64,000 nucleotides of DNA from an uncultured Candidatus Saccharibacteria bacterium (GTDB lineage Bacteria; Patescibacteriota; WWE3; UBA101185; UBA10185). Where the stretch lies: positions 69,622-133,621 of the forward strand of contig CAZXUJ010000001.1 in NCBI GenBank assembly GCA_964643995.1, in the 5' to 3' direction. Of the stretch, positions 6,995 to 22,475 are shown piece by piece. A program made the translations under genes and the position numbers. The notes beneath the pieces are model-generated. The model made no database searches. It saw only the letters and a list, made by a program, of their open reading frames with translations, and was not told the DNA's origin. The stretch's first letter is position 1. Each line of letters starts with the position of its first letter.

Positions 6995-8308
6995 TCAAAG
7001 TAGTTGAGTAGCTAAATAAAGCGCTGTAGAAACAAGTAGCACAGAGGATATTAATCCTGAGTAGTCTGAAAACCAGGTGATTTTTTTGTTTATGGTTGTT
7101 TTGAATTTGTAAAACAAAAGCATAAAGCAAAGCAAAACCAGGTATATTCCACTTGCAAAAGCAACAAGAACTGGAATTAGAAGCCACAAATAACCTGTTG
7201 ATATTACTATAAAAAGTATTGTCCAGCCCATCAGACATGGGGATAACCCCTCAAAAAAAGCTAACATAAACTTCTCTCGGGAGCTTGGGTAACTTGTGTA
7301 ATCATGGTTATGATCATGGTGGTGTTCGTTATGAAGGCTATGCTCTAAGCGATGTTTCATAAAGTGGGACAATTCCTTTAGCAGTTGCCAGAAAGATACA
7401 AAAACCATTGAATAAATTGCAAAAATCTGAATTTGACCCGCAAGTGTGTATATATCCCTGAATGAGTTTAGAATTAATAAGAAGGTGCCTATAACAATAA
7501 GATCTGACATATGCGTAAGCGTAAACAGGGAAGTGAAAACAAGGCCATCCCTAAGGGAAGTTCGCTTATCAACCATAAATGATGCGAGTATTACTTTACT
7601 ATGACCTCCTTCCAAAGCATGCAAACCACCCACTACCATGGCAATGAGTAATATAAGGATTAATGAGCGCAAGGTGGTTTCTTCGACCCTAGATTTAAAA
7701 GTTTCCACTAAAACGTTATTGATAGAACTCCTCGAGGTTTCGTCTGCTTTAACCGAGGCATCAATGTTTACACTGCTAAACGCTAGGGTGCTATCGATAC
7801 CAGACAAGACTCCCCCCTTGATAGCAGTTGCAGTACCATCCTTAGTTAGTTTTGAAATAGTTACATAATTCTGAGTTGGCGTAAATTCATTAAATAAATC
7901 TATATTTAATACGCCATGTGTAACATCTGCAACGCAACTATAGGTACCTATCAAAAATATGTCAGTAGATTCCTTCGATGTTCTTTGCATTGAAAGGTCT
8001 TTGTTTATAGATAGTGTGCAAACTTTGTCATCTACACTCAAAATAGATTTTTGCTTAACATATGAATCCAAAGTATTAAAGTGAAAATCTAGAAATGACA
8101 TGAGGTTGTCCTCGTTTGCTACAGCATCAACCAAAACATTAAGTTGTACCCAGTTCAATGCAATCGTAATTTCAGCTGACTTAGCGGGGGTATCTGCAAG
8201 AACTAATGTTGTTGATGTTGAGTTAGAAGGATGTGCCAATACAACACCAGAAGCTGAAAAAAAGAGGAAAAAAGATATAATTACCAATATAAACTTGTTG
8301 ATAGACAT
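6995..8308 (-). CDS. NicO/RcnA-like Ni/Co transporter fused to an N-terminal secreted domain
   Basis: Signal peptide and a 200-aa extracytoplasmic domain, then a TM core with GGLHALEGGHSK (NicO family GxxHAxxPGHGK motif) and a His-rich loop HNEHHHDHNHD. Confidence 0.55.
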   Translation of the reverse strand: MSINKFILVIISFFLFFSASGVVLAHPSNSTSTTLVLADTPAKSAEITIALNWVQLNVLVDAVANEDNLMSFLDFHFNTLDSYVKQKSILSVDDKVCTLSINKDLSMQRTSKESTDIFLIGTYSCVADVTHGVLNIDLFNEFTPTQNYVTISKLTKDGTATAIKGGVLSGIDSTLAFSSVNIDASVKADETSRSSINNVLVETFKSRVEETTLRSLILILLIAMVVGGLHALEGGHSKVILASFMVDKRTSLRDGLVFTSLFTLTHMSDLIVIGTFLLILNSFRDIYTLAGQIQIFAIYSMVFVSFWQLLKELSHFMKHRLEHSLHNEHHHDHNHDYTSYPSSREKFMLAFFEGLSPCLMGWTILFIVISTGYLWLLIPVLVAFASGIYLVLLCFMLLFYKFKTTINKKITWFSDYSGLISSVLLVSTALYLATQLL

Positions 8309-9123: not shown

Positions 9124-9655
9124 CGTGGCAATTATACACTATACTTTTATTGTGGTTATATTCAGAGATCAGAGTTTGTTTGAGTTTCATGAAGCCAGAG
9201 ATTCTGGAGTCACGCGAATATCTAGAGGGAAGTTTATAATTTCGAATTTTATACTGAGTGTTGTATTTTTGGCAATCACAACTGCATTTTTAAAAAACTT
9301 TTATTATGTTGATCTGGCAAACACATGCATTATAAAAACCAAATACTCAATACATACAGAAAACAAAACTCATATACATCAGGCAATTAAGACTATCAGA
9401 ACAACAATGCCAAGTGATTACAAAACTCTTTGCAATTATGTCACTAACATAACCGAAACTAACTGTATTGTCGCCAATGAAACAGGACCTATCATCACAT
9501 ATGCTGATAGCGTAGGTTGCTATATCAAAGGCACAAAGACTGTCTTTATTCAACCTTTAACTACCTCACAAACAAAACCAGACAATGAGGAAATTGCTGA
9601 GAATCTAGCGAGATATTCTAGATATAGCGAAGAATTCTGGCTCAATATACAGTAA
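9104..9655 (+). CDS. Hypothetical membrane-anchored protein, paralog of the 9642-10085 ORF (no HExxH)
   Basis: The ORF track gives 8960-9655. The first in-frame ATG that does not run deep into the upstream divergent gene is at 9104. A TM segment precedes an NFYYVDL...P.DY..CN.V block shared with the convergent neighbour. The start is uncertain. Confidence 0.4.
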   Translation: MFLLFIIVAIIHYTFIVVIFRDQSLFEFHEARDSGVTRISRGKFIISNFILSVVFLAITTAFLKNFYYVDLANTCIIKTKYSIHTENKTHIHQAIKTIRTTMPSDYKTLCNYVTNITETNCIVANETGPIITYADSVGCYIKGTKTVFIQPLTTSQTKPDNEEIAENLARYSRYSEEFWLNIQ

Positions 9656-10085
9656 CTTTATCAAGAAACAGTTTGCCAACTTTATAGCATTCTTGCTCAA
9701 GAAGAGTACGTTTTTCGCTGAATTGACGGGCATGGCAAGTTTCATGCAAAATCAAATCGGCAGCAAAAGCTATATTGCCTTGATCGTTACCTATATAAAT
9801 TACATCTGGTTTATTCATATAAAAACATCCACCATCAAGACCACCACATCCTGGATTTTTATTTACCACACGCACACGATTACATACCTCGGAGTAATCG
9901 CCTGGAGAGGCATATTTGATCAACCTTAAAGCACCTCTTAGATCCAAATTGCTTAATAGAAAAGACGGAACTACTCTTATCACACAGTAACCTGGATGTT
10001 CAAAATCAACGTAATAAAATCTAGATAGAACAAATGTTGAAGATAGAAATATTGTTAGAATTATTAAAACTTTTTTCATAAGCAC
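9642..10085 (-). CDS. Hypothetical secreted/membrane-anchored putative Zn-metallopeptidase-like protein (HExxH)
   Basis: N-terminal TM segment, then RFYYVDF...PGDYSEVCNRV...NIAFAADLILHETCHARQF with an HExxH motif. It is paralogous to the 9104-9655 ORF. Confidence 0.5.
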   Translation of the reverse strand: MLMKKVLIILTIFLSSTFVLSRFYYVDFEHPGYCVIRVVPSFLLSNLDLRGALRLIKYASPGDYSEVCNRVRVVNKNPGCGGLDGGCFYMNKPDVIYIGNDQGNIAFAADLILHETCHARQFSEKRTLLEQECYKVGKLFLDKVTVY

Positions 10086-10090
10086 GAGTG

Positions 10091-10807
10091 TTACTGTGAT
10101 TTCAACTCTTTTATATAGGTGAGTTCCTGCTTAGTTAATGTTCGACTTGCACCTAACGCTAAATCACCAAGGTGTAACTTTCCAATACTTACACGTTTCA
10201 ACTCTGTAACGTGCAAATCCACATAACGGCAGGACATACGAATTTGTCTTTTGATCCCTTCATAAATAGTCATTTTAAATTCTCTTGGTCCGGTTTTTTC
10301 TATTTGGGCACGTGATGTAACCTTGTCATCTATTGGTATGCCACCTTCACGAAGTTTTGCCAGTTGCATTTCTTTCACTACTTCACGCGTTGTCACAATG
10401 TATGTCTTCGGTACATGAAACTTTGGGTGGGTCATTTTATAGGACAAATCACCATCGTTTGTTAACAGTATTAGACCAGTGGAATCATAATCTAGCCTTC
10501 CAATGGGATATAATCTGTTTTTTGATTTCACAAGTTCTTTTGTGGTTTTTCTTCCTCTATCGTCAGTAACCGTGGATAACACCTCTTTTGGTTTGTTCAG
10601 CAAGAGATACTCATAGTTTTCTTTAATAGGTTTAGTGTTTATTGGCTTTTTATCTAGTTCTACAGTGTCCACAGTATCATCAACCACATCACCCAAAACT
10701 GCAACCTTACCATTAATATTGATACGTTTTGCACTGATTAAAATGTCTGCTTTGCGTCTCGAAGCAATATTATTTTGAGCCAAAAACTTGTTTATACGGG
10801 TTTTCAT
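10091..10807 (-). CDS. rRNA pseudouridine synthase, RsuA/RluB family
   Basis: N-terminal S4 domain (RINKFLAQNNIASRRKADILI) and catalytic core LLLNKPKEVLST...RLYPIGRLDYDSTGLILLTNDG. Confidence 0.85.
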   Translation of the reverse strand: MKTRINKFLAQNNIASRRKADILISAKRININGKVAVLGDVVDDTVDTVELDKKPINTKPIKENYEYLLLNKPKEVLSTVTDDRGRKTTKELVKSKNRLYPIGRLDYDSTGLILLTNDGDLSYKMTHPKFHVPKTYIVTTREVVKEMQLAKLREGGIPIDDKVTSRAQIEKTGPREFKMTIYEGIKRQIRMSCRYVDLHVTELKRVSIGKLHLGDLALGASRTLTKQELTYIKELKSQ

Positions 10808-12997
10808 TTATTCGTATCTTAATGCATCAAGTGCAGAAATTTTACGTGATCTTTTTGCAGGGAATATGCCTGTTCCAATACCTACGAAAAAGGATAATAT
10901 CATTATCACGGCTATAAATGAAAATGGGATATGCGAGATATTTATAAATCCCTGACCTTTTGCAACTGAAAAAACTGTGAGAAGTAGACTCGCTGCCTTT
11001 CCAAAGACTAACCCAACAAGTAAACCTGAAATACCCGCACAAAAACCCATAATGATAGACTCTGTTAAAAATAGCTCCTGGACCTCCATAGTGGTCATAC
11101 CCATGGCTTTCATTAAACCAACCTCACGAGAACGCTCAAGGAGTGAGACAGTTAAGGTATTGAACATACCTAGGGATGCTACAGCGAGCGCGATCATACC
11201 CATAACACCAAGAACCAAGCGTATAGTGGCAAACAGACTCGTAATTTGTTCAACCGTATCGACTACCGAGGTAGTAGCAAAACCAGCGGCTTCTATCTGC
11301 TTGCGAATAATATCGAGTGATTCTTGATCATTTGAAACTACCTTAAGCTGAGAATAATTCACAATTCCTAAAGAGCGTAGGTCTATAAAGGGGACATAAA
11401 ATACTGGCGCAGTATCATCTGGCGTTACACCAACAATTGTATACTCGGTAGATTCAGACTCAGTACGCTTTTTTGATTCGGCAAGTAGATTTGTGGGTAT
11501 TACAAATGAAGCACTGAATGTTTTACCAACCGCATCGCCTTCGGTGATGTTTAAAATTTTCAACATAGCACGGTTAACAACAGCCTGACGTAGCGCATTG
11601 TTGCTAATTACAACAGTGTTAACTTCGTCTTCGTCGGAAACAGAGGTTTCATCTACAATTTCGACCCACTCACCATCCTCTACAACAACAGTTTGATCTT
11701 GTGCAACTGGCACTGGATTTGTTTTTGCTGGTTCCTCAGCAACAATTGCCTGGGCTAGGCTCGTTGAAGTTCCTAAAACCTTACCGGGAAGGTTAACGGG
11801 TGTAACTGAAAGATTGATTTCGGCTATGTAGCCTTGTTCTTGCACCAAATCGCTATTGTCATCAAGTTTAGGTAAATACTTACCATCTATACAGCCAATA
11901 TCAGCATCGGTGCATGTGGTTTCTTCCCAAAGATAAGCTTTGGTTTTTACCCAGCGACCCAAAACTGCACCATCAGAATCGGTCGCAAACACTCCATTGG
12001 AATCGTCAGATAAATATGTGGCACCTGCGACATAAACACCATTTTGCAAACCTTCTACCCTCTTCGTATATCCTAACAACTCGGAGTTAGGGCTAGGTTC
12101 TTTACGGACACGAACCCAAGTTTCAGGTAGGATTTCAAATTCAATAGGTGAAAGCTCTTCTAAGTAGGTGTACTGAACTCGGATATCTTGAGTACCTGCT
12201 ACTTCAGGTGGCTCTACAAGTTCCGGCACATAACTTTCAAGACTAACCGAAATTTCATTGCTATCAAATATGGCACCCTCAATTGGTTTTATAGCCGATT
12301 TTTCCAGATAACCGGTTGTAACACCATAAACCGCCATGTCGGAAACAGAATTTTGGTAATTTACTCTTCCAACGACAGCTATCAAGGGGTAAACATCCGC
12401 TACATTTGCATAACTCTTGATATCAGAGAGTGTTTTGTCATCAATACGTATTCTTGAACCAGCCTGCGGTGCAATGTCAACCTGTCTCAGCTCGTCTAAG
12501 CGAGCAACACGACCAATAACTAGTCTTTGAAGTCCATAACCCACCGAAACAAGAAAAACTATTGCACCAATACCAATGGCTACACCGCCAATGGTTATCA
12601 ACGTACGGGTTTTTTTCACTTGCATATTTCTTATAGCTAACCTGATAATATCCAACTTAGAGATAGTTTCGCCTCTGTTACGATCAAAAACACTCACGAA
12701 CTTCACATAAAATCTTGAATAGTTACCTTGAATGTTGCTTAATGTTGGTTTCGGAACAAAGGGAATTCTATGAAGATATTTAACAACCAAAGAATTAACC
12801 ACATATATAAGAACCAACATATGAAATGAGAAGAACTCACCAGAGAAATACACCAATGATTTTACAAGCGAAACTAGCGCAGGTTTGAGAGAACGTAACT
12901 TCTTGGGAATGTTAGTCACATCGAATCTTAATTTCATTGTTGTATTAATTATTAGCTTTTTTTGAAAAAAATCTAGGTTGTTTTTTCTTAGGCCCAA
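10808..12997 (-). CDS. ABC transporter permease, FtsX/MacB type with an enlarged extracytoplasmic domain
   Basis: 729 aa with an N-terminal TM segment, a roughly 420-aa periplasmic domain and a C-terminal FtsX 3-TM bundle (GLMKAMGMTTMEVQELFLTESIIMGFCAGISGLLVGLVFG). It overlaps the upstream ATPase gene by 53 nt. Confidence 0.8.
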   Translation of the reverse strand: MGLRKNNLDFFQKKLIINTTMKLRFDVTNIPKKLRSLKPALVSLVKSLVYFSGEFFSFHMLVLIYVVNSLVVKYLHRIPFVPKPTLSNIQGNYSRFYVKFVSVFDRNRGETISKLDIIRLAIRNMQVKKTRTLITIGGVAIGIGAIVFLVSVGYGLQRLVIGRVARLDELRQVDIAPQAGSRIRIDDKTLSDIKSYANVADVYPLIAVVGRVNYQNSVSDMAVYGVTTGYLEKSAIKPIEGAIFDSNEISVSLESYVPELVEPPEVAGTQDIRVQYTYLEELSPIEFEILPETWVRVRKEPSPNSELLGYTKRVEGLQNGVYVAGATYLSDDSNGVFATDSDGAVLGRWVKTKAYLWEETTCTDADIGCIDGKYLPKLDDNSDLVQEQGYIAEINLSVTPVNLPGKVLGTSTSLAQAIVAEEPAKTNPVPVAQDQTVVVEDGEWVEIVDETSVSDEDEVNTVVISNNALRQAVVNRAMLKILNITEGDAVGKTFSASFVIPTNLLAESKKRTESESTEYTIVGVTPDDTAPVFYVPFIDLRSLGIVNYSQLKVVSNDQESLDIIRKQIEAAGFATTSVVDTVEQITSLFATIRLVLGVMGMIALAVASLGMFNTLTVSLLERSREVGLMKAMGMTTMEVQELFLTESIIMGFCAGISGLLVGLVFGKAASLLLTVFSVAKGQGFINISHIPFSFIAVIMILSFFVGIGTGIFPAKRSRKISALDALRYE

Positions 12998-13868
12998 TTT
13001 CTGGCGTAGGTACAGGCTGCGTTGGCATAGGCGGGTTAGGCGGTAAGGGGGTTGGAATTGGAGTTGGGGGGCTTACGGGTTCCGGGGCTATCACTGGCAC
13101 TTCAGCCGCAGTTTCAATCACCAAAGATTCTCCGCGTTTTGTAGGTACCGACTGTTCTAGGACGGCTTTCTGATCACCCACAACTACGGACTCAACCTTA
13201 CCATCAAAAATCTTAACCACACGTTTTGCATACTTTATATATTCAAGGTCGTGGGTAACCATCAAGACCGTTTTACCGCTCTCATTAAGGCTACTTAGGA
13301 GTTGCATTAGGTTTTTACCGGATTCAAAGTCGAGGTTACCTGTAGGCTCATCAGCAATTATAATCTCAGGGTCCGTAACAAGGGCGCGTGCTAAGGCTAC
13401 TTTCTGCTGTTGACCTCCTGAGAGCTCAGTTGGAAAATAATTGACCCAGTTGCTCATTCCCATATTTAGTATTGAATGCCAAGCTTTTTTAATTGCCTCA
13501 CCTTTTTCTACACCTAGTAGTGACAAAGGAAAAGCTACATTTTCAACAACACTTAATGACTTAACCCAGTTAGGTTGTTGATAAACCATCCCTACATGCT
13601 TCTTACGGAAAGAGGATCTAGCATCTTCGTTCGGGAGTTCATATAGACTGACTCCTAAACATGTAACAGACCCAACGGATGGAACTTCCAAGCCGAGGAG
13701 CATATGTAAAAGTGTAGATTTTCCAGAACCGGAAGGACCAATGATAACTGTGAAATCACCCTTATTAACTTCAAAACTCATACCTTTGATAACTGGAATA
13801 TGTTGATTCCCTACCTTATAAGATTTTTCAAGGTTCTCAACCTTTATTACAACATTGGTTTCAGCCAT
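12945..13868 (-). CDS. ABC transporter ATP-binding protein (MacB/LolD-like) with a proline-rich C-terminal tail
   Basis: Walker A GPSGSGKST, signature LSGGQQQKVALARAL, Walker B IIIADEPTGNLD. The C-terminal tail is PEPVSPPTPIPTPLPPNPPMPTQPVPTP. The start overlaps the stop of the giant gene by 1 nt. Confidence 0.9.
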   Translation of the reverse strand: MAETNVVIKVENLEKSYKVGNQHIPVIKGMSFEVNKGDFTVIIGPSGSGKSTLLHMLLGLEVPSVGSVTCLGVSLYELPNEDARSSFRKKHVGMVYQQPNWVKSLSVVENVAFPLSLLGVEKGEAIKKAWHSILNMGMSNWVNYFPTELSGGQQQKVALARALVTDPEIIIADEPTGNLDFESGKNLMQLLSSLNESGKTVLMVTHDLEYIKYAKRVVKIFDGKVESVVVGDQKAVLEQSVPTKRGESLVIETAAEVPVIAPEPVSPPTPIPTPLPPNPPMPTQPVPTPEIGPKKKQPRFFSKKANN

Positions 13869-16800
13869 TATTTAAGCCCTCCCAAGAAACCAAAGACCTG
13901 ACTCAAGTTGGTTATAACAAGATTAAGAGCATTATCAGAAGCTTTAGGCGTGATGGTAACAGTATCAACAGAGTTTCCAACATTATTGGCTTTGTCGTTG
14001 GAAATTGCCCTCAGATGGTAAACCTTTGACGGATTTAGTCCAGATATTACTACCGCATGATTAAATGTTAAATTACTATCTTCTTGGCTTTTCTGTGAAT
14101 AGGTTGATCCAGTACCCTCGCCAAATTCGACTTGAGATGTAGCAGGCTCGTCGGTGTCCCAGCTTATGACAAGTTGCGCTGTCGCTTCTTTATCTTGGGA
14201 TACAACAACACTTCCCTCAATACTCAAGTTTGATATCGCTGGGGGTCTGGTGTCTGTTGCAGTCGTGATACGTTGTATATCGCTAGAAGCCTCATTACCA
14301 GCTTTATCACGTCCCTTAACCGTCAACAAATAAGTTGTTTCTGGTAGTAACCCTTTAATCTGGAGACGATGTTGTCCCTTAACCAATTCAACATTTACTT
14401 CATCTCTAGCATCAGCAGTATTACCCTCAGGGTAGTAAGTTAAAATCGACGAGACCTCTGTATTGGTATTCCATGTCACTAAAACTGACGGTTGTGCGGC
14501 TCCCCTCACCTGCTGAATTCTCACATTGTCGATTTTTGGACGAGGAAGAGTTTCAAAGGTTAATACACTTCCATCATACTCATCATCCTCAGGATCAAGG
14601 GTATTGATCTTATAATAGTATTTTGTACCGTCGGTAAGATTTTCAAGAGTAGTATTATATGTGGTTTCTGAGGTCGATGTGGCAAGTTCTAACAAACTGC
14701 CAGAAGCTCCAGATAAGCCATAATAAATTTTTACCGATGTAGCATCGGTAACTGTATATTGTAGGGTAACTCTATCGATGCCTACATACTTTGCCGAAGG
14801 ATCTGTAACCGTAGGAGCAGGAGCTGTTTCGAAAGTGAATTCATCACTTAGTCCGGTGTTACCATCTTCATCCGTCCATTTGGCAATCGCATAGTAACTG
14901 GTACCTGGACTTAGATTTGAAAGTGCTATCTCATGGGCAGTGACTTGATCAGAGTTCGAAGGCTCTTCATCAAAATAATCCCCCGAACTAGTACCATATT
15001 GTATTTTTGAATCACTTACGCGATCGGTTGACCAAGTGATTGTAGCTTTCTTCGTAGTGATTCCAGTAACCTCAGGTTCTGAATCAAGCGTAGCAGCTTC
15101 GGTAAATCTACCTGTAGGAAGTAACTCGACAGAGCTGGTAAATGCACCGCAATTATCAACACTATCGCAGGCACGGACTTTATAATAGTATGTTATCTCT
15201 TCAAGACTAGTATCAATGTAGGCTGAACCGGTAGTGGTAGCTAAGGAGCTATAAGTTGAGTCATCCTCTGAACGATAAATCTCGTAATAATCTATACCTG
15301 AACCTACATCAGTTGGAGCAGTCCAAGAAAGTGCTAATCTCCAAGATTCAGTACTTTTTATTGAGACATCAGAAATCTCTAAGTTAAGAGGAATACCTGG
15401 AGCTGAAGTGTTAGCTGTAAATGAAACGCTTGTGTAAGAACCATAATTGATAGCACTACCATAATCACTGCCATTTCTGGCCGCCAAATAAAGTGTGTTT
15501 AATCCGACTTGAGTAGCAAAGGAACTTGCCGAAAGAGTAGTATCTCCAGCACTTGTATAAGTACAAGTGGAGGAAGAAGGTAAAGTGTTAACTGTATAAC
15601 AGTAAGTCAAAGCATCTTCAGTACCAGAGTAACTTGATGGCGCGTCCCAAGAAAAGGCGAATGAATTGGATGTGTTTGTACTCGGTGTAACTTGTAAAAA
15701 TTGTGGTGCTGAAGGACCATCACCTGCATAATAATAGGTTGCTTGCAGTGGTGTTGCTGAGTAATTGCCTGCCGTATCCACAACCCTTAGATAAAATGTG
15801 TTTGCGTCAGTTTGATATGCCGCATCGTCAATTTCGATTGAAGTTAGCGCTGTAGTAGCAGACCAATCGCTTAGTGCACCAGATGCGGCACCAGTTTTGT
15901 ATTGATAACCAGCTACACCAGACCCACTGTCGGAGGCTATACCCTCACCACTTGAAGGCCATGAAAACGTAAACGAATTTGAGGCGGCATAACCAGATGG
16001 TGTAACAGTAACCGTGCTTGGGTTACTTGGGGAAGTATTGTCAAATTTGTAAATAAAGGCGGCATATGTCGTACTTACATTTTGTGCATTGTCTTTGGCT
16101 TGTATTCTTAAATAATAGGTACTTCCACTTACGAGACTACTTGCGGTATATGTGGAGCCGGCTTGAAATGAACCTGCCGTTGACGGAACTGCAGAGCTAT
16201 CAGTTCCAAAATATACAAAATATCCAGCTAGCCCAGCTCCTGCATCACTCGCGCCGCTCCAAGAGAAATAGGGTCCTGTATGAGTGTACCAAGTGTTTGT
16301 CGTAAGACTAGATCCACCAAATGCACTAAGTGCCGTGATGCTACTTGGGGCGGTAGGGTTAGTTGTATCAGAATTTGCCTCAACTATTACCTCATTGACA
16401 GTGACTTGTTGAGTGCCGTCACCATCTAAAATTGCTTGCCATTTTATACCAGACGAGGATATTGGGAGAGTGGGAATATTTGTGTTTATATCAGCTTCCG
16501 TATTTGCCTGACTAGTAGAGGCAGATGTTTCCCACGAGTCACTATCCCAGTATTTCCATGTGCTACCACCGTCGGTTGAAAGTCTATACATTACAGTACC
16601 ACCATTTAGTGTTTCTGTAGTGACAAAACCTGCAAAACTGGCAATATCCTCAGTAAATACAGCAGTAGTGTTTGAAACAGTTTGTGCCGACGCAGAATAC
16701 GGTGTCGTTGTAAAGGATGATCTGGCAGACGTGCTGATTCTAAGTTCGTCCAGTGTCCCATTAAAGTAACCTTGGGCAACACCACTGGAAGTACTTCCAT

Positions 16801-19744
16801 ATGTCGTACCCACTAACAAGCTTTTTGTAGTATTTGGTATAGATAAAGAGGCACTACCTGAATTATCAAGAACACCATCAATGTATATTTTCATCGTGCT
16901 ACCGTCATAAGTTGCTGCTATGTGGTGCCAACTGGTGTTTTGAGTCGCCGTAGTAGACTGTAGATATCCATTGTTTCCATAAGACCATACTGCCGCATCA
17001 ACATTTGCGGACTCGCCCAAACCTGCAAATAGTTTTCCTTGAAAAACAGCTAACGAGTGTACACTTTCGGACGCATTAATATCCCAGCTTGAGTTTATTG
17101 CATCTCCTCCGATCTGACTCCATGATGAACCGTCATATCTCCAAACTTCTGACTCTCCAGCAGTTGTTCCAACGCCAGCAAAGACATAACCATTGTATGA
17201 AGCTAAAGAGCGCACCCTTTCGTAGGTTCCTGAGGTCCAACTACTATTTAAATCGTCACCACCTACTTGTGACCAAGTACTACCATTCCATTTATATACA
17301 TCAGCGTCTCCCGCCGTAGTACCTAAACCTACATACAGTTCATTGTTGTGAATTATCATTGAATCCACCTGCTCGTGAAGTGAAGCCCAGCTAGAATTGG
17401 TACTGTCGCCACCTATTTTAGTCCATGCGGTACCATTCCAACTGTAAACCTCAGCGTCACCAGCACTACTACCAATACCAGCGTATAGAAGGTTATTGTA
17501 CCCAACCATGCTATGAACTGTTTCATAGTTAGTGTTCCAGCTCGAGTTAGTTCCGTCACCTCCGATTTTTGTCCATGCCGTACCGTTCCAACGCCAAACT
17601 TCAGCCTCGGTGGCAGTAAGTCCCAAGCCAGCATACAAATAACCATCGTAGGCCGCCATACTCTGGACGTTTTCAAAACCGGTTGTCCATCCTGAATTTA
17701 AACTATCACCACCAACTTGAGTCCATGTTGAGCCATTGTATCGCCAAACCTCGGCATCGTTAGCCGTAGATCCTAAACCGGCATATAGATTTCCACCATA
17801 ACTCTGAAGTGAAAAAACTGTTTCAAACGTACCCGCGGCCCAGCTACTATTGACTCCTTGTCCACCAACAATGGTCCAAGTGCTGCCATCGTACTCAAGT
17901 ACCATAGCATTACCCGCTACTGTATAACCCGTACCAGCATAAAGTTTGCCGTTGTGGGTTTTCAATGCTTCTACACTTTGAAGGTTGTAAAAACCCCAGC
18001 TTTTATTAATGTAGTTGCCACCAAACCTTGTCCATGCACTTCCGTTCCAACTCCACATTTCACCACTTGCACCCGTACCTGTAAGACCTGCATATAAGGT
18101 ACTACCTGAATATAAAAGAGTGTTAACATGGGTATGCGTGTTTGTAAAACCAGAGTTTATTGCATCACCACCAATTTTGGTCCAAGTCGTTCCATTCCAA
18201 CTCCATACCTCGTTATCACCCGCGGTATTACCCAAACCAGCATAAACAGTTGATCCGGTACTTGCCAAACTGTAAACAGCCTCGTATGAACTAGAATCCC
18301 AGCTCGAGTTCACAGTATCGCCGCCAATTTTTGACCATGTCCCACTCGTAAAACGCCAAACTTCGGCCTCACCTGCGGTTGTTCCAATACCTGCATATAA
18401 ATCTCCGCTTAGGTAAGTCATGCTTAGAACATATTCATAGGTGGTATTCCAGCTTGAATTTGTTCCATCACCACCAATTTTTGTCCACGCACTACCGTTC
18501 CAACGCCAAATTTCAGCGTCGGTTGCACTAGCACCTAACCCTGCATAAACATTAGTACCGTCATTTATAAGGGAATATACCTGTTCAAACCCAGTGGTCC
18601 AACCTGAATTCAAGCTATCTCCACCTATTTGAGTCCAGGCACTGCCATTCCAACGCCATACCTCAGCATCGTTAGCTGTAGTACCAATGCCCGCATACAA
18701 GTTTGACCCCATGTAAGTTAAACTAGCTACTTGCTCATATGTTCCAACTGCCCAACTCGAATTAACAGCATCACCGCCGATTTTCGTCCAATCAGTGCAG
18801 TTAGACGTAGTATCGCAACTCCAGACCTCAGCATCACCTGCAGTAGTACCAAGTCCTGCGTAGAGCAAAGTTCCGTTGGTAGCCAAGGATAAAACACTTT
18901 CAAAAGTTTGGTCCGCCCAGCTAGAATTATCGCCAGCACCACCTATTTGAGACCAAACTGTACCATCCCATTTCCAAACCTCAGCATCACCAACAGCGTT
19001 ACCTAACCCAACATAGATGTCTGAACCTACAGTAACCGAGGAATGTACAGCAAACTTACCGTTTAGGTCCCAGCTGTTGTCAATGTCTATACCAGCATTT
19101 TGCGTCCACTCTGTTGCACTAGAACTGGCTAACTCATATGTAATTTTTCCGGTCTCATTGTCGTAGTAAAGTTTATAGTCACCCTTGTCTACTATTCCTT
19201 GAGCCTGATCCGCGCTACCTGCTGATAAACTTGTGCCAAACTTAGTCCAAGCTTCAATAGAATTGACTTGCCCTAGGGAGATTGATGCAGAATCAGTTAC
19301 GGATATTTTGGAAGTGTCTCCATCAAGGGTTAGGCCATTGTTTAGATTACCAGTAACCCATGATGGAGCTGTGGCCGTACCATCATTAGCATTGCTAGAG
19401 GAGTCATCGACTGTAGTACCAGAAGATTCGTCAAGGTGAAAAAGTAATGCAGTGTCTGAGTCAGACGTATAGTTTTGAACCTTTAAGCGTGCAGTACTGC
19501 TTGATACCTCAACTGCGGTTGAATCGGATAAAGTGTAATCTCCAGCACTTGCAAAATCCCAAGTATAATCAACATCCCCCGCAGCAAATATATGCTGAAT
19601 GTATGAAGAAAATAACAAAGCAGATGTAAGAATAAAAACGACAAACACATGAAAAACATGTTTGCTTTTTTTGATACGCTTTGTAAATACTCCGTTGTAT
19701 ATTTGTTTCAAATGTGTCACATATTTGGGCATAGCTTCTCTCAT
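13868..19744 (-). CDS. Giant (1958 aa) secreted/surface protein: signal-anchor, LamG/ConA-like domain, 14 beta-propeller-like repeats, second LamG-like domain, array of fibronectin-III-like domains
   Basis: N-terminal hydrophobic anchor. Laminin-G-like pattern ALLFHLDESSGTTVDDSS and later LDELRISTSARS. Fourteen repeats of about 55 aa of the form LYAGLG.TAGDAEVW.WNG..W..IGGD..NSSW. C-terminal repeated beta-sandwich modules (FN3-like, Y.Y.V.A.D..GN.S). The true start may be M5 (MPKYV) at 19732. Confidence 0.8.
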   Translation of the reverse strand: MREAMPKYVTHLKQIYNGVFTKRIKKSKHVFHVFVVFILTSALLFSSYIQHIFAAGDVDYTWDFASAGDYTLSDSTAVEVSSSTARLKVQNYTSDSDTALLFHLDESSGTTVDDSSSNANDGTATAPSWVTGNLNNGLTLDGDTSKISVTDSASISLGQVNSIEAWTKFGTSLSAGSADQAQGIVDKGDYKLYYDNETGKITYELASSSATEWTQNAGIDIDNSWDLNGKFAVHSSVTVGSDIYVGLGNAVGDAEVWKWDGTVWSQIGGAGDNSSWADQTFESVLSLATNGTLLYAGLGTTAGDAEVWSCDTTSNCTDWTKIGGDAVNSSWAVGTYEQVASLTYMGSNLYAGIGTTANDAEVWRWNGSAWTQIGGDSLNSGWTTGFEQVYSLINDGTNVYAGLGASATDAEIWRWNGSAWTKIGGDGTNSSWNTTYEYVLSMTYLSGDLYAGIGTTAGEAEVWRFTSGTWSKIGGDTVNSSWDSSSYEAVYSLASTGSTVYAGLGNTAGDNEVWSWNGTTWTKIGGDAINSGFTNTHTHVNTLLYSGSTLYAGLTGTGASGEMWSWNGSAWTRFGGNYINKSWGFYNLQSVEALKTHNGKLYAGTGYTVAGNAMVLEYDGSTWTIVGGQGVNSSWAAGTFETVFSLQSYGGNLYAGLGSTANDAEVWRYNGSTWTQVGGDSLNSGWTTGFENVQSMAAYDGYLYAGLGLTATEAEVWRWNGTAWTKIGGDGTNSSWNTNYETVHSMVGYNNLLYAGIGSSAGDAEVYSWNGTAWTKIGGDSTNSSWASLHEQVDSMIIHNNELYVGLGTTAGDADVYKWNGSTWSQVGGDDLNSSWTSGTYERVRSLASYNGYVFAGVGTTAGESEVWRYDGSSWSQIGGDAINSSWDINASESVHSLAVFQGKLFAGLGESANVDAAVWSYGNNGYLQSTTATQNTSWHHIAATYDGSTMKIYIDGVLDNSGSASLSIPNTTKSLLVGTTYGSTSSGVAQGYFNGTLDELRISTSARSSFTTTPYSASAQTVSNTTAVFTEDIASFAGFVTTETLNGGTVMYRLSTDGGSTWKYWDSDSWETSASTSQANTEADINTNIPTLPISSSGIKWQAILDGDGTQQVTVNEVIVEANSDTTNPTAPSSITALSAFGGSSLTTNTWYTHTGPYFSWSGASDAGAGLAGYFVYFGTDSSAVPSTAGSFQAGSTYTASSLVSGSTYYLRIQAKDNAQNVSTTYAAFIYKFDNTSPSNPSTVTVTPSGYAASNSFTFSWPSSGEGIASDSGSGVAGYQYKTGAASGALSDWSATTALTSIEIDDAAYQTDANTFYLRVVDTAGNYSATPLQATYYYAGDGPSAPQFLQVTPSTNTSNSFAFSWDAPSSYSGTEDALTYCYTVNTLPSSSTCTYTSAGDTTLSASSFATQVGLNTLYLAARNGSDYGSAINYGSYTSVSFTANTSAPGIPLNLEISDVSIKSTESWRLALSWTAPTDVGSGIDYYEIYRSEDDSTYSSLATTTGSAYIDTSLEEITYYYKVRACDSVDNCGAFTSSVELLPTGRFTEAATLDSEPEVTGITTKKATITWSTDRVSDSKIQYGTSSGDYFDEEPSNSDQVTAHEIALSNLSPGTSYYAIAKWTDEDGNTGLSDEFTFETAPAPTVTDPSAKYVGIDRVTLQYTVTDATSVKIYYGLSGASGSLLELATSTSETTYNTTLENLTDGTKYYYKINTLDPEDDEYDGSVLTFETLPRPKIDNVRIQQVRGAAQPSVLVTWNTNTEVSSILTYYPEGNTADARDEVNVELVKGQHRLQIKGLLPETTYLLTVKGRDKAGNEASSDIQRITTATDTRPPAISNLSIEGSVVVSQDKEATAQLVISWDTDEPATSQVEFGEGTGSTYSQKSQEDSNLTFNHAVVISGLNPSKVYHLRAISNDKANNVGNSVDTVTITPKASDNALNLVITNLSQVFGFLGGLK
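17030..19045 (-). repeat. Intragenic tandem repeats (about 165 nt x 14) encoding the propeller blades of the giant protein
   Basis: Recurrent DNA words (e.g. ccaacgccaaa(c/t)ttcagc at about 17590, 18499 and 18650) and 14 protein-level YAGLG...AEVW.WNG...IGGD...NSSW units. Confidence 0.6.
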
Positions 19745-19757
19745 ATTGACAAGGGCC

Positions 19758-19786
19758 TATATATTATTCTAGAGCCTAAAAGTCAA
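19758..19786 (-). promoter_or_regulatory. Candidate sigma70-like promoter for the giant-protein/ABC operon
   Basis: On the minus strand: TTGACT - 17 nt - TATATA, 13 nt upstream of the annotated ATG. This favours the downstream M5 start. Confidence 0.3.
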
Positions 19787-19871
19787 AATTTGATCATATA
19801 TAAAGTATATTACAAAAAAGAGAATAAATGTATAAAATTACTAGCAAGTTTACTATTGATAGCTATGGTAA

Positions 19872-22070
19872 TTGAGTCTACTATTAACTGAAATGAGCAT
19901 ACGTAAAAAACTCTTTGTCTTTATTTTATTTGTCGGTTTAGTATCAGGGGGTGTAGTTGTAATAGTATCCGAAACTTTTATCAGACTTAATGTGGAAGAG
20001 ATAGAAACAAAGACTGCCGAAGAAAGTGTTTCACAGGTACTCGGGGTTTTAGAAGAAAAGATTAACAGGGTCGATACATTTACAACAGACTATGCCGGAT
20101 GGGATGATACTTATTATTTTATTCAATATCCAAATGAAGAGTACATAGAATCCAATATACTGACTGAAACCTTGGTTACTACTAGGATAGGTTTCATGAT
20201 CTATGTAAACAAATCAGGACAAATCGTAGAGGATAAAACTGTGGATCTAGGATTAGGTATCGGCGTTTTTACCCCCGAAAGTCTTATCGCGGAAGTGGAA
20301 AAGGGGGGGGATTTGATACACCACACAAACACTAATGAAGTTAGAAAAGGGATACTCGCCTTAGCTGATGGAACTCGCGTAATCATATCCTCCAGGCCAA
20401 TCTTGACGAGTGCAAAGGAAGGACCAATAATGGGCACTTTGATCTTTGGCGAATTCCTGGATGACTACACCTTACATGATATTGAAAACAAAACCAAGAG
20501 GAAAGTAACCATACATAGTACAGATTCAACTGACACTAAAGTACAAGACATAATAGGCAAAATCAGTGAAAACAGCTCAACCGTTGTGCTGACTCCTGAC
20601 AATAATACACTGCAAGGGTATGCCCTTATCAAAGATATCTATGGGAACCCAACAATGCTCTTACAAGTTGAGCTACCGAGAGATTATTACGTACAAAGCC
20701 GCAAGCAATCGATTTCATTTATTGTTAGTATAATTGCCATAGGGTTGTTGTCATACTTAGCAGGGATTGTCTACTTTGAAAATTTGGTTCTGAAGCCATT
20801 GAAAAACATTACGAGAGACCTCGCAAAGATAAGAGCAAAAAAAGATTCGGCATTGAGAGTTGAGATGACAGGTTCAAATGAGATGAAAACGCTGGCCACA
20901 CATATAAATGAGATGCTAGAGAGTTTATCAGAATATGAGATCAAGCTGGTAAACATTAACGAAACACTCAAGAAGGAAAACAAGGATATTGAATCAATCG
21001 TAAAGCAAAAAACAGCAGATTTGAAAGAAGAGAGAGCACGGCTATTGTCAACATTTAATTACATCCCAAATGGACTCTGCATTACTAACACTAGACTTGA
21101 AATAGCGCTCACAAACCCGGGAATGTATAAAATCCTAAACCTAAGTGACTCAGAGCACTCACTTACATTTGATAAATTACAATCAGTACTAAAAGATTCC
21201 CTAAATATTAAGGAACTTTGTGATGACTGTCTGGAGTATGGAAAGCCAATTAGTCAAGAGATACGATATCAGGAACGAGTGTTTGACCTTTATATAGCGA
21301 CTATAAAGTCACTAGACAAGGCAGAAAAGTTTGGACTTATAATTTTGCTTACAGATATGACTCAGATTAGACTACATGAAAGAGCTCAGGATGAATTAAT
21401 AAACGTACTTTCCCATGAATTAAGAACACCGCTATCTGTGATAAAAGGATACGTAAGTATGCTGCAAAAAGCACCAATAGTTGATGAGAGTGTCAAAAAG
21501 GAGCTAAGTGGAATAGATGTAGCTAACCAACACCTTATTGAATTGGTAAACAATGTGCTAACGTTGTACAAATTGGAACAAAACAAGCTTATTTTCGATG
21601 AAGAGGAGATTGTAATCGCTAAGTTACTCAATGAAACACTAGAAAACCTCGAACCGGAGCATAAATACAAAGACCTAAAAATAAATCAGACGATACAAGA
21701 TGAAAATATAAAAGTTTTAGCAGATAAAGAAAAACTAAGACTTGTAGTAAGCAATGTGCTATTGAATGCCATTAAATATACCGAACATGGAACAATAGAT
21801 GTTTCTTCTGAGATAGATGGGGATAAGTTAAAAGTTAAGGTAAAAGACACGGGAATTGGTGTAGCAAAAAAGAACCAGGCGATGCTGTTTAAAAAATTTC
21901 AAAGAGCTGGGGATACTATACACGTAAAAGAGAACCTTTCGGAAAAAGGAATGGGACTTTATATTTCTAAGTTGATAATGGAAAAAATGAACGGGGATTT
22001 GTACCTGGAATTTTCGGACCTTGGCGCTGGTAGCATATTCGTATTTACAGTAAGGTTGGTAATTGAGTAA
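19872..22070 (+). CDS. Membrane sensor histidine kinase (extracytoplasmic sensor domain, PAS-like, HisKA, HATPase_c)
   Basis: N-terminal TM and a periplasmic domain of about 250 aa with a second TM. H-box LSHELRTPLSVIKGY. ATPase G-boxes DTGIGV and GMGLYISKLIMEKMNGDL. Confidence 0.85.
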   Translation: MSLLLTEMSIRKKLFVFILFVGLVSGGVVVIVSETFIRLNVEEIETKTAEESVSQVLGVLEEKINRVDTFTTDYAGWDDTYYFIQYPNEEYIESNILTETLVTTRIGFMIYVNKSGQIVEDKTVDLGLGIGVFTPESLIAEVEKGGDLIHHTNTNEVRKGILALADGTRVIISSRPILTSAKEGPIMGTLIFGEFLDDYTLHDIENKTKRKVTIHSTDSTDTKVQDIIGKISENSSTVVLTPDNNTLQGYALIKDIYGNPTMLLQVELPRDYYVQSRKQSISFIVSIIAIGLLSYLAGIVYFENLVLKPLKNITRDLAKIRAKKDSALRVEMTGSNEMKTLATHINEMLESLSEYEIKLVNINETLKKENKDIESIVKQKTADLKEERARLLSTFNYIPNGLCITNTRLEIALTNPGMYKILNLSDSEHSLTFDKLQSVLKDSLNIKELCDDCLEYGKPISQEIRYQERVFDLYIATIKSLDKAEKFGLIILLTDMTQIRLHERAQDELINVLSHELRTPLSVIKGYVSMLQKAPIVDESVKKELSGIDVANQHLIELVNNVLTLYKLEQNKLIFDEEEIVIAKLLNETLENLEPEHKYKDLKINQTIQDENIKVLADKEKLRLVVSNVLLNAIKYTEHGTIDVSSEIDGDKLKVKVKDTGIGVAKKNQAMLFKKFQRAGDTIHVKENLSEKGMGLYISKLIMEKMNGDLYLEFSDLGAGSIFVFTVRLVIE

Positions 22071-22079
22071 AATGGTTAT

Positions 22080-22475
22080 ATGGCAAAAATTTTGATTATT
22101 GAAGATGACCTAGCGGTTGCAGGTATATATCAGGACTTACTAGAAAAAGATGACTACAAGGTTATTGTTTGCAGTAATGGTGCCGACGGCTTAAGTGCTG
22201 CAAGGAGCGAAAAACCAGATCTGATACTTCTGGATGTTATGATGCCAAACATGGACGGCATAGAGGTTCTAAGAAGACTAAAGGCAGATAACGATACTGA
22301 CCTTATACCCGTAATAGTCTTAACGAATGTAGGTGTAGATGAGGTGCAGAACGAAGCACTGAGCTTGGGTGCAGCAAGATATATTGTAAAGACTGATGTA
22401 TCGTACCCACGTTTTGTTGAGCAGATTAAAGATTACGTTACAAAAAGTCCTCCGGAACAAGCAATAAATAACTAA
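22080..22475 (+). CDS. Single-domain response regulator (CheY-like receiver only)
   Basis: 131 aa with KILIIEDD...LILLDVMMPNMDG...VIVLTNVG, a receiver with conserved Asp residues and no output domain. Confidence 0.85.
   Translation: MAKILIIEDDLAVAGIYQDLLEKDDYKVIVCSNGADGLSAARSEKPDLILLDVMMPNMDGIEVLRRLKADNDTDLIPVIVLTNVGVDEVQNEALSLGAARYIVKTDVSYPRFVEQIKDYVTKSPPEQAINN

Follow-up and report, generated by a model that had tools for sequence, protein, structure and literature searches.

As described in the excerpted text of PMC12646458, ATP-binding cassette (ABC) systems of type VII offer no path for a substrate across the membrane; movement driven by ATP is passed to an outer domain, and each characterized system acts with a dedicated outer partner, as in FtsEX-EnvC, LolCDE-LolA, MacAB-TolC, and YbbAP-TesA. 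Here, we describe a three-gene module on a 64-kb stretch of the patescibacterial contig CAZXUJ010000001.1 (positions 69,622 to 133,621; the whole of this stretch is called the window), in which the gene of a giant surface protein is followed by those of an ABC ATPase and a permease of the MacB/FtsX type. On balance, we think it probable that a type VII ABC mechanotransducer has the giant protein as its dedicated outer partner and would hold it at the invariant C-terminal end, using the ATP cycle to anchor, reposition or release it. We arrive at this reading because the giant gene and the ABC pair are linked in both directions of search, the C-terminal end of the giant protein is strongly conserved, its terminal helix persists across permeases of different classes, and the ATPase is intact.

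By analogy, the module most probably works like FtsEX, which exerts mechanical control over a dedicated partner (EnvC, PcsB, CwlO or RipC). FtsEX is likewise a type VII system, it transports nothing, and its outer partner is recognized partly via helices. The components differ, however. FtsX has ~300 residues and an FtsX_ECD domain, and its partner is a coiled-coil hydrolase or activator, whereas the module has a MacB-type outer domain of ~413 aa and a partner of ~2000 aa built from fibronectin type III (FN3) domains. In the case of YtrEF, YtrF of Bacillus subtilis (PDB 9o9x/9o9y), at 436 aa, is shorter than the permease described here and has no counterpart of its ~120-aa SH3b-like insert, its disordered linkers or its ~100-aa N-terminal extension; the ytrGABCDEF operon contains no giant FN3 protein, and YtrF’s own function is unsettled.

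Linkage of the giant gene and the ABC pair

The genes of the module follow one another on the minus strand, as follows.

13868–19744, minus strand: giant surface protein gene, 1958 aa (open reading frame; Pfam fn3, Pur_ac_phosph_N, Laminin_G; homologues 5′ of the ABC pair in 66/66 loci)
12945–13868, minus strand: ABC ATPase, 307 aa (ABC_tran, E = 1.5e-32; Walker A, signature motif, Walker B, and H-loop intact)
10808–12937, minus strand: permease of the MacB/FtsX type (type VII ABC), 709 aa, from the ATG at 12937

The linkage was followed from both sides. A permease profile (A1) was run on contigs representing one genome per species and gave at least 599 sites, at least 545 of them encoding a relative, from which the best 80 were kept; for the reverse direction, the last 419 aa of the giant protein (A2) served as the anchor on metagenome contigs, with the best 80 kept and 78 loci scored. 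Of the permease-anchored loci, 66 have 2.5 kb or more of upstream DNA, and every one of these contains a giant homologue. In 54 the homologue is on the same strand and no more than 150 nt from the ATPase gene; in 10, among them split genes and three loci where kinase and receiver genes intervene, it is 5′ at a larger gap; the order is rearranged in 2. The usual junctions in relatives measure −4 to +12 nt. From the giant side, the ATPase gene is immediately 3′ in 61 of the 78 loci and the ABC pair is elsewhere within the flank in 10 more, for a total of 71. This two-way synteny spans WWE3, Microgenomates, WS6, Moranbacteria, and Nomurabacteria, in which the other neighbors all vary, and clustering of the open reading frames of 79 genome loci revealed no gene, besides the giant gene and the ABC pair, that is broadly conserved around the module.

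An earlier note on this DNA, made from the sequence alone, had proposed the ABC pair to be a dedicated machine for the giant protein rather than a generic efflux pump, and had named routine separation of the homologues in related genomes as the observation that would speak against it. The homologues are not routinely apart, whether one starts from the permease (66/66) or from the giant protein (71/78); therefore, we regard the giant gene, the ATPase gene, and the permease gene as a conserved module, and the proposed dedication is borne out by the linkage.

A MacB/YknZ-type transporter for efflux or antimicrobial-peptide resistance, lying by chance beside an adhesin gene, would agree with the annotation of homologues as ‘ABC-type antimicrobial peptide transport system permease’ and with the structural relationship of the permease to MacB and YknZ. 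We consider such a transporter very unlikely, since the linkage is seen from either side in deep lineages whose other neighbors all vary. MacAB-TolC and the pneumococcal Spr0693-0694-0695 pump do share with the module the permease fold and the MacB_PCD outer domain, and ATPase–permease fusions such as MacB occur in two relatives (L009 and L081). However, the module has no HlyD-family or TolC partner: no gene for a membrane-fusion protein (HlyD/MacA) or an outer-membrane factor is found at the window locus or among the recurrent neighbors at the 79 loci, and the conserved neighbor is instead the giant FN3 protein. A chance placement also fits poorly with loci L043, L066, and L071, where kinase and receiver genes sit between the giant and ATPase genes.

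The earlier note was correct in placing three consecutive genes on the minus strand, with longest open reading frames at 13868–19744, 12945–13868, and 10808–12997, and the profile search that it proposed returned fn3, Pur_ac_phosph_N, and Laminin_G for the giant protein, ABC_tran for the ATPase, and MacB_PCD plus FtsX for the permease. The sharing of 1 nt by the giant stop and the ATPase start can also be read directly, as TAATG (…AAA TAATGG…), and a GGGAGGG motif resembling a Shine-Dalgarno sequence lies 5′ of the ATPase start. A claimed 53-nt overlap of the ATPase and permease genes, by contrast, depends on the longest-frame call for the permease, 10808–12997 (minus strand), which uses an upstream TTG at 12997. 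We judge this overlap to be an artefact of that call because the public-database protein P0001, identical to the permease, is 709 aa long and begins at the ATG at 12937, and because in the relative L003 (83% identical) the equivalent ATG is the first possible permease start, with none upstream. The ATPase stop is at 12945–12947, and the permease ATG comes 7 nt later. A promoter and terminator scan of 9400–20100 gave nothing above chance.

The base composition of the region is ~37–40% G+C, and the neighbors are housekeeping genes. The identical contig is present in Logan assemblies SRR8893623 and SRR8893624, and the best relatives are labelled Patescibacteria, from WWE3, Shapirobacteria, Daviesbacteria, Woesebacteria, WS6, Moranbacteria, and Nomurabacteria. 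Many third-party contigs of metagenome-assembled genomes (e.g., L013, L014, L027, L042, and L054) carry titles such as ‘uncultured Gammaproteobacteria’, ‘Bdellovibrionales’ or ‘Pseudomonadales’, and their module copies are 45–50% identical to clearly patescibacterial ones. These titles look wrong, or look like the outcome of host-associated mis-binning.

Several arrangements were observed around the module or its paralogues. At L115 (1–3765), a divergent giant paralogue with the tail …LILQSLKNLFAF is followed directly by a true FtsE/FtsX pair, in which FtsE has a helix-hairpin-helix C-terminus and FtsX is 315 aa long with an FtsX_ECD domain. Its sisters L117, L122, and L124 have no ABC pair 3′ of the giant gene, and L122 has two giant genes in tandem. 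At L042 (14827–16704) and 12 loci of the same clade, a gene for a PilB-type ATPase of type IV pilus assembly (T2SSE, MshEN) lies a few kb 3′ of the module, where a RelA/SpoT gene and a chaperonin gene recur likewise; this recurrence may be mere lineage-level synteny.

Downstream in the window, a gene for an RluB-like pseudouridine synthase (10091–10807, minus strand) abuts the permease stop with zero gap. It was considered as a module member and rejected, as it is found only in the window, in the identical copies L001 and L002, and in L003; we regard it as a lineage-specific operon passenger. Next to it, at 9642–10085 (minus strand), a 147-aa open reading frame with an N-terminal hydrophobic signal and a HETCH (HExxH-like) motif has no Pfam match and is kept in L003; it could encode a small secreted metallopeptidase. 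Further along, at 6995–8308 (minus strand), is a gene for a 437-aa membrane protein with a histidine-rich loop, HNEHHHDHNHD, whose database copy has a weak DsbD_2 annotation and which may be a metal transporter.

The conserved and variable parts of the giant protein

The giant gene, on the minus strand throughout, is organized as follows, from its 5′ end.

19580–19744, minus strand: basic region, hydrophobic segment (residues 27–55; Kyte-Doolittle peak 2.02), and a signal-peptidase-like site, IFA↓A
19064–19492, minus strand: N-terminal half of a split LamG (concanavalin-like) domain; spliced to residues 926–1015, it matches Laminin_G_3 positions 1–146/151
16925–19063, minus strand: 14 tandem repeats of ~51 aa, residues 228–940, inside LamG (repeat register and repeat alignment)
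16715–16924, minus strand: C-terminal half of the split LamG (Laminin_G_3 positions 77–146; Laminin_G_2)
15128–16714, minus strand: beta-sandwich/FN3-like array, residues 1011–1539 (fn3 matches; conservation 0.26–0.6)
13931–15127, minus strand: four tandem FN3 domains, residues 1540–1938 (AlphaFold2 model; Foldseek)
13871–13930, minus strand: terminal amphipathic helix (ITPKAs-DNALNLVITNLSQVFGFLGG), modelled at fragment residues 400–417

Only the C-terminal ~900 residues can be aligned in all relatives, whose open reading frames range from ~930 to 2960 aa, and short-form homologues align from giant residue ~1000–1150 onward. Taken in blocks of 30 residues, the identity to 61 homologues climbs from ~0.3 near residue 1000 to 0.48–0.76 at residues 1540–1958, so that strong conservation is confined to the last ~420 aa, that is, to the four FN3 domains and the terminal helix. 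The AlphaFold2 model, built with 30 homologues, has four tandem beta-sandwich domains (predicted local distance difference test score, pLDDT, 88.5) and closes with a helix of 18 residues at the very C-terminus, and in a Foldseek search the modelled domains matched fibronectin type III repeats 7–10. Nearly all homologues share the tail motif, ITPKA-x-x-NAL-[ND]-LV-I-x-NL-x-x-x-FGFL. At E ≤ 1e-30, the C-terminal profile finds 3172 cluster representatives (50% identity), and the match is mostly at the very end of proteins of 1000–4400 aa that otherwise differ from one another.

The terminal helix has a hydrophobic moment of 0.38, versus 0.18 for shuffled sequences, and a hydropathy under the membrane-helix threshold, for which reason a classical membrane anchor was rejected. 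A sortase-type sorting signal was rejected as well: the sequence has no sortase-type motif or basic tail, and no sorting-signal family matched. Superficially, a conserved helix at the extreme C-terminus resembles a type 1 secretion signal, and the giant and ABC genes are adjacent; the earlier note had spoken of an exporter, possibly type-1-like. Export of the giant protein by the ABC pair, with the helix as the signal, is nevertheless the least credible of the explanations considered here, and we give it almost no weight. The permease has the FtsX/MacB fold with four FtsX-fold helices; a membrane domain of the exporter type is absent, as are C39 and CLD domains, and neither a membrane-fusion (HlyD) nor an outer-membrane (TolC) partner accompanies it; the giant protein itself has an N-terminal hydrophobic signal of the Sec type and, by Pfam, no RTX repeats.

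The terminal helix also bears on a Lol-like mode of extraction or release, which we hold to be possible though doubtful. Once exported by Sec, the giant protein would be tethered in the outer leaflet by the terminal helix or by an N-terminal anchor, the ABC pair would expel that segment, and the protein would then pass to the cell wall or S-layer, or be shed or detached on demand. This variant differs from the proposal of a held outer partner mainly in what the ATP cycle achieves, and the synteny evidence applies to it equally. The helix is conserved and amphipathic, and LolE and LolC are clear structural relatives of the module permease. In the excerpted text of PMC12646458, LolCDE, HrtBA, and YbbAP draw hydrophobic moieties from the outer leaflet, and the type VII systems LolCDE-LolA and YbbAP-TesA grip such moieties there and pass them on to, or work together with, a dedicated partner. 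But the hydropathy of the helix is below the membrane-helix threshold, and a one-off release would not obviously demand strong conservation of four FN3 domains. Moreover, the signal region of the giant protein has no cysteine and hence no lipobox; neither a LolA-like acceptor nor TesA is present; one permease gene alone stands in place of a LolC/LolE heterodimer in what is a monoderm-type organism; and the NCBIfam scores for LolC, LolE, and LolD are far below cut-offs. As a family assignment, the lipoprotein extractor of the earlier note is not supported.

At the other end, the sequence of the N-terminus is that expected of a Sec signal or signal anchor, with putative cleavage at IFA↓A. Homologues have comparable N-termini, and in 23 of 49 a WQFN-type motif precedes the hydrophobic segment, which we take to be reminiscent of conserved signal-peptide motifs in other large surface proteins. 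When the repeats are spliced out, their flanks match Laminin_G_3 from position 1 to 146 of 151 at 66.9 bits, versus 55.3 bits for the C-terminal half alone; since splicing restores a full-length match, the repeats interrupt one LamG domain. The modular 1958-aa protein and its 14-repeat region, as described earlier, were both recovered here, the latter as ~51-aa units at residues 228–940. The repeats show a four-strand-like pattern, and it is plausible that they are beta-propeller blades, perhaps of the two 7-bladed propellers that the earlier note had expected. Searches of Pfam and the PDB gave no significant match for the 14-repeat region, and the comparison of the repeat profile with the LGI1 EPTP propeller was non-significant (E = 0.19).

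In relatives, the N-terminal part varies. A reverse transcriptase gene (RVT_1) is present in 16 of the 79 genome loci and a bAvd gene in 15, just 5′ of short-form giants, in the order bAvd, template repeat, reverse transcriptase, and then target, which is that of a diversity-generating retroelement. The template and variable repeats are ~90–150 nt long, and their mismatches are nearly all at template adenines (5/5, 14/15, 16/16, 17/17, etc.). In 14 of the 16 cassettes, the variable repeat is in, or at the start of, the giant open reading frame, about 350–400 codons from the N-terminus. The complete cassettes are distributed as follows.

Variable repeat in the giant gene: L009, L011, L012, L016, L021, L023, L027, L034, L039, L046, L052, L079, L081, L082
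Variable repeat in another upstream gene: L019, L080

The targeted giants are 1100–1600 aa long and are hypermutated away from the protein C-terminus; some giant open reading frames have the …NNVGFRCASDP ending that is typical of C-type-lectin variable regions. The window’s own giant gene is without a retroelement, and no reverse transcriptase or Avd homologue was found in the 64 kb of the window. The cassette order in the relatives matches the ‘B3’ architecture that has been reported for 90% of the retroelements of the candidate phyla radiation (CPR) (PMC5758913). The family departs from these described retroelement targets in that the window gene lacks the retroelement altogether and that the variable region of the relatives is near the N-terminus, not at the C-terminus. 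No ABC link is mentioned in the searchable texts of published surveys of CPR retroelements.

The N-terminal part of the family can thus be exchanged: the window has LamG with repeats, other members have a lectin-like domain diversified by a retroelement, and there are further forms. Judging from these sequences, diversifying pressure appears to act on this part, as is characteristic of surfaces that bind a ligand or host, and we read it as a ligand-binding surface because a retroelement targets it in 14/79 relatives.

Some genomes have more than one module. On contig JBAYIT010000002.1 (Shapirobacteria), L012 and L044 are two full modules lying back to back within ~45 kb; their N-terminal parts differ, and one of the two is a retroelement target. 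The pair fits the idea of swappable N-terminal parts on a common C-terminal end and motor. Likewise, L006 and L036, from the same metagenome-assembled genome, are two complete modules.

The ABC pair compared with type VII systems

The following features of the ABC pair are used below.

12948–13130, minus strand: proline-rich C-terminal ATPase tail, residues ~247–307 (from sequence; lineage-specific linker)
11267–12505, minus strand: permease extracytoplasmic domain, residues 145–557, a Porter/Sabre core plus an insert (AlphaFold2 model; MacB_PCD)
11795–12178, minus strand: beta-rich SH3b-like insert, residues ~254–381, with a near-invariant cysteine pair and disordered linkers on both sides

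All catalytic motifs of the ATPase are in place: Walker A (GPSGSGKST), signature (LSGGQQ), Walker B (IIIADEPT), and H-loop (VTHD). Its top NCBIfam scores, for LolD, DarD, FtsE, and MacB, are about equal and all below cut-offs, and none of the equivalogs tried for the pair (LolD, FtsE, MacB, DarD, LolC/E, and FtsX) can be assigned, the scores being far below cut-offs. The unusual proline-rich tail that the earlier note had singled out is indeed present at residues ~247–307. It is specific to one lineage, however, since a long tail of this kind is found only in the window and L003, and the median tail of 65 homologues is 13 aa; as a functional hallmark of the module it was rejected. In two relatives, the ATPase is fused to the permease in the manner of MacB, at L009 (9092–11992, 966 aa; database copy P0031) and L081 (9209–12043, 944 aa), and on account of these fusions we read the tail as a labile linker.

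The AlphaFold2 model of the permease (pLDDT 75.5) has an N-terminal helical extension at residues 7–107, with a hydrophobic stretch at 28–58. The first transmembrane helix (TM1, 109–144) is followed by the outer domain, 145–557, and then by three further membrane helices (TM2, 558–611), so that the helices number four, possibly five. The outer domain, at ~413 aa, is about twice the MacB size, as had been noted before. Four FtsX-fold helices, a large outer domain between TM1 and TM2, and a cognate cytoplasmic ATPase with intact catalytic motifs (ABC_tran, E = 1.5e-32) are the features of a type VII system, and by the model the permease has the type VII ABC fold, with YtrF and MacB as its nearest relatives. 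That it practices mechanotransmission on an extracytoplasmic partner is suggested by analogy, from the fold and from the conserved synteny with the giant gene.

Permeases of other sizes accompany giants with the same type of terminal helix. These classes are of ~390–420 aa, without the insert, of about 720–790 aa, and of about 830–865 aa; the last aligns to the window permease only from residue ~260.

Loci of the deviant permease size classes: L144, L148, L154, L158, L162 (also L151); L103, L106, L107, L113, L116, L118, L121

The terminal helix motif is kept with permeases of ~400, ~700, and ~850 aa. Because the ~400-aa class lacks it, the SH3b-like insert is not a universal coupling or docking element, and from the conservation of their sequences the terminal helix and the last FN3 domains of the giant protein appear to be better candidates for coupling.

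A wall or division module resembling FtsEX must also be considered, in which the ABC pair would regulate peptidoglycan remodelling, bound to the wall via the SH3b-like insert, and the giant protein would be a scaffold or adaptor for a hydrolase encoded elsewhere. The closest solved relative of the permease, YtrF, belongs to an operon that the partial texts of PMC8060467 and PMC12772383 implicate in cell-wall thickness; the divergent giant paralogue of L115 is directly 5′ of a true FtsE/FtsX pair with FtsX_ECD; and the module is conserved at a level typical of housekeeping genes. We nonetheless regard a wall function of this kind as improbable. The outer domain is of the MacB type (MacB_PCD) and not FtsX_ECD, the NCBIfam scores for FtsX and FtsE are below cut-offs, and the true pair of L115 looks different. 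Pfam and NCBIfam searches of the giant protein found no hydrolase, LytM or coiled-coil activator domain, the 400-aa permease class has no SH3b-like insert with which to hold the wall, and a hypervariable N-terminal part targeted by retroelements better suits ligand or host recognition than housekeeping wall turnover.

BceAB-BceRS resembles the module as a type VII ABC transporter that is genetically coupled to a two-component system. Its permease, BceB, however, contains 10 membrane helices, and its kinase, BceS, senses within the membrane and is paired with a DNA-binding regulator of the OmpR type; the module has 4 (possibly 5) helices, a kinase with an extracellular CHASE4 sensor, and a bare receiver, and so is not a Bce system.

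A proposed mechanism, its signaling genes and its meaning

Divergently from the giant gene, the window carries two signaling genes.

19872–22070, plus strand: CHASE4-HAMP-HisKA-HATPase histidine kinase (Pfam), divergent, likely associated with the module
22080–22475, plus strand: stand-alone receiver, 131 aa, without an output domain (Pfam Response_reg only)

Among the 79 related loci, 21 have homologous kinases, or CHASE4 or CHASE4-PAS sensors, and 11 have receiver genes. One clade comprises 14 loci, several of them labelled Moraniibacteriota, in which the kinase or sensor gene is directly 3′ of the permease gene, and in the three loci named above the kinase and receiver genes are inside the module. 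Recurrence in such differing arrangements supports a functional link between the kinase and receiver and the module, in line with the suggestion of the earlier note that the adjacent two-component system could control it. Since the receiver has no DNA-binding domain, control through protein–protein contact would be at least as likely as transcriptional control.

We propose the following mechanism. The giant protein would be exported by Sec through its N-terminal signal. Its N-terminal part, here LamG with the 14-repeat insert, would be the exchangeable portion for binding ligand or host, and the four FN3 domains and terminal amphipathic helix its invariant end. The ATPase and the FtsX/MacB-fold permease would form a type VII ‘mechanotransmission’ complex that carries nothing across the membrane; ATP binding and hydrolysis in the cytoplasm would be converted into movements of the permease outer domain. 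The permease may hold the C-terminal end of the giant protein with this domain or in an outer-leaflet cleft between its membrane helices, so that ATP would be spent on anchoring that end and on altering the giant protein in its conformation or its state of attachment. Peptidoglycan may be the support on which the SH3b-like insert braces the complex, and gating of the motor, or of its expression, is probably the task of the CHASE4 kinase and the stand-alone receiver.

Several points weigh against this proposal of a giant protein held and moved by its C-terminal end. The hydrophobic N-terminus could be an uncleaved anchor, in which case the conserved C-terminal end might be distal and undocked. 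The ABC pair is absent nearby in 7 of the 78 giant-type loci, mostly of a divergent clade (…LFNF tails) or on short contigs, and the ~400-aa permease class does without the SH3b-like insert. Both locus sets consist of the 80 best matches each, with weaker relatives lying outside the sample. Finally, what the sequences and models show is the gene linkage, the folds, the pattern of conservation, and the variability of the N-terminal part, with hypermutation by retroelements in relatives; the physical contact of the permease with the giant protein, the identity of the end that is held, and the outcome of the ATP cycle are matters that we infer.

It is tempting to go further, although we do so only speculatively, and to picture the module as a signal-gated surface actuator. 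The ABC motor would extend, retract, tension or release a giant adhesin during attachment to the host, with the CHASE4 kinase and the CheY-like receiver switching the motor post-translationally, and host specificity would evolve by swapping the N-terminal part (LamG/propeller or C-type lectin) or by retroelement hypermutation.

In the literature on surface proteins of Patescibacteria/CPR, on type VII ABC systems, and on retroelements, we found no description of the module or of a link between it and CPR retroelement targets. The module is new in its partner class, a giant FN3 surface protein, and in the architecture of its outer domain; by fold it belongs to the known type VII superfamily. For the type VII mechanotransmission family, both the kind of partner and the outer architecture, with its SH3b-like insert, would be additions. 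A functional context would be gained for the retroelement targets of the CPR, most of which have no recognizable domains according to surveys (PMC8144416).

The module is widespread, with at least 545 encoded relatives in the genome scan and 3172 C-terminal cluster representatives; it is conserved as housekeeping genes typically are, and binding domains diversified by retroelements recur in it. A large part of bacterial diversity belongs to the Patescibacteria, which live as cells attached to other microbes, and to our knowledge little is known of how they attach beyond type IV pili. If the module is indeed a surface actuator, it would represent adhesion machinery of a new, ATP-driven class and would be central in determining the episymbiotic lifestyle.

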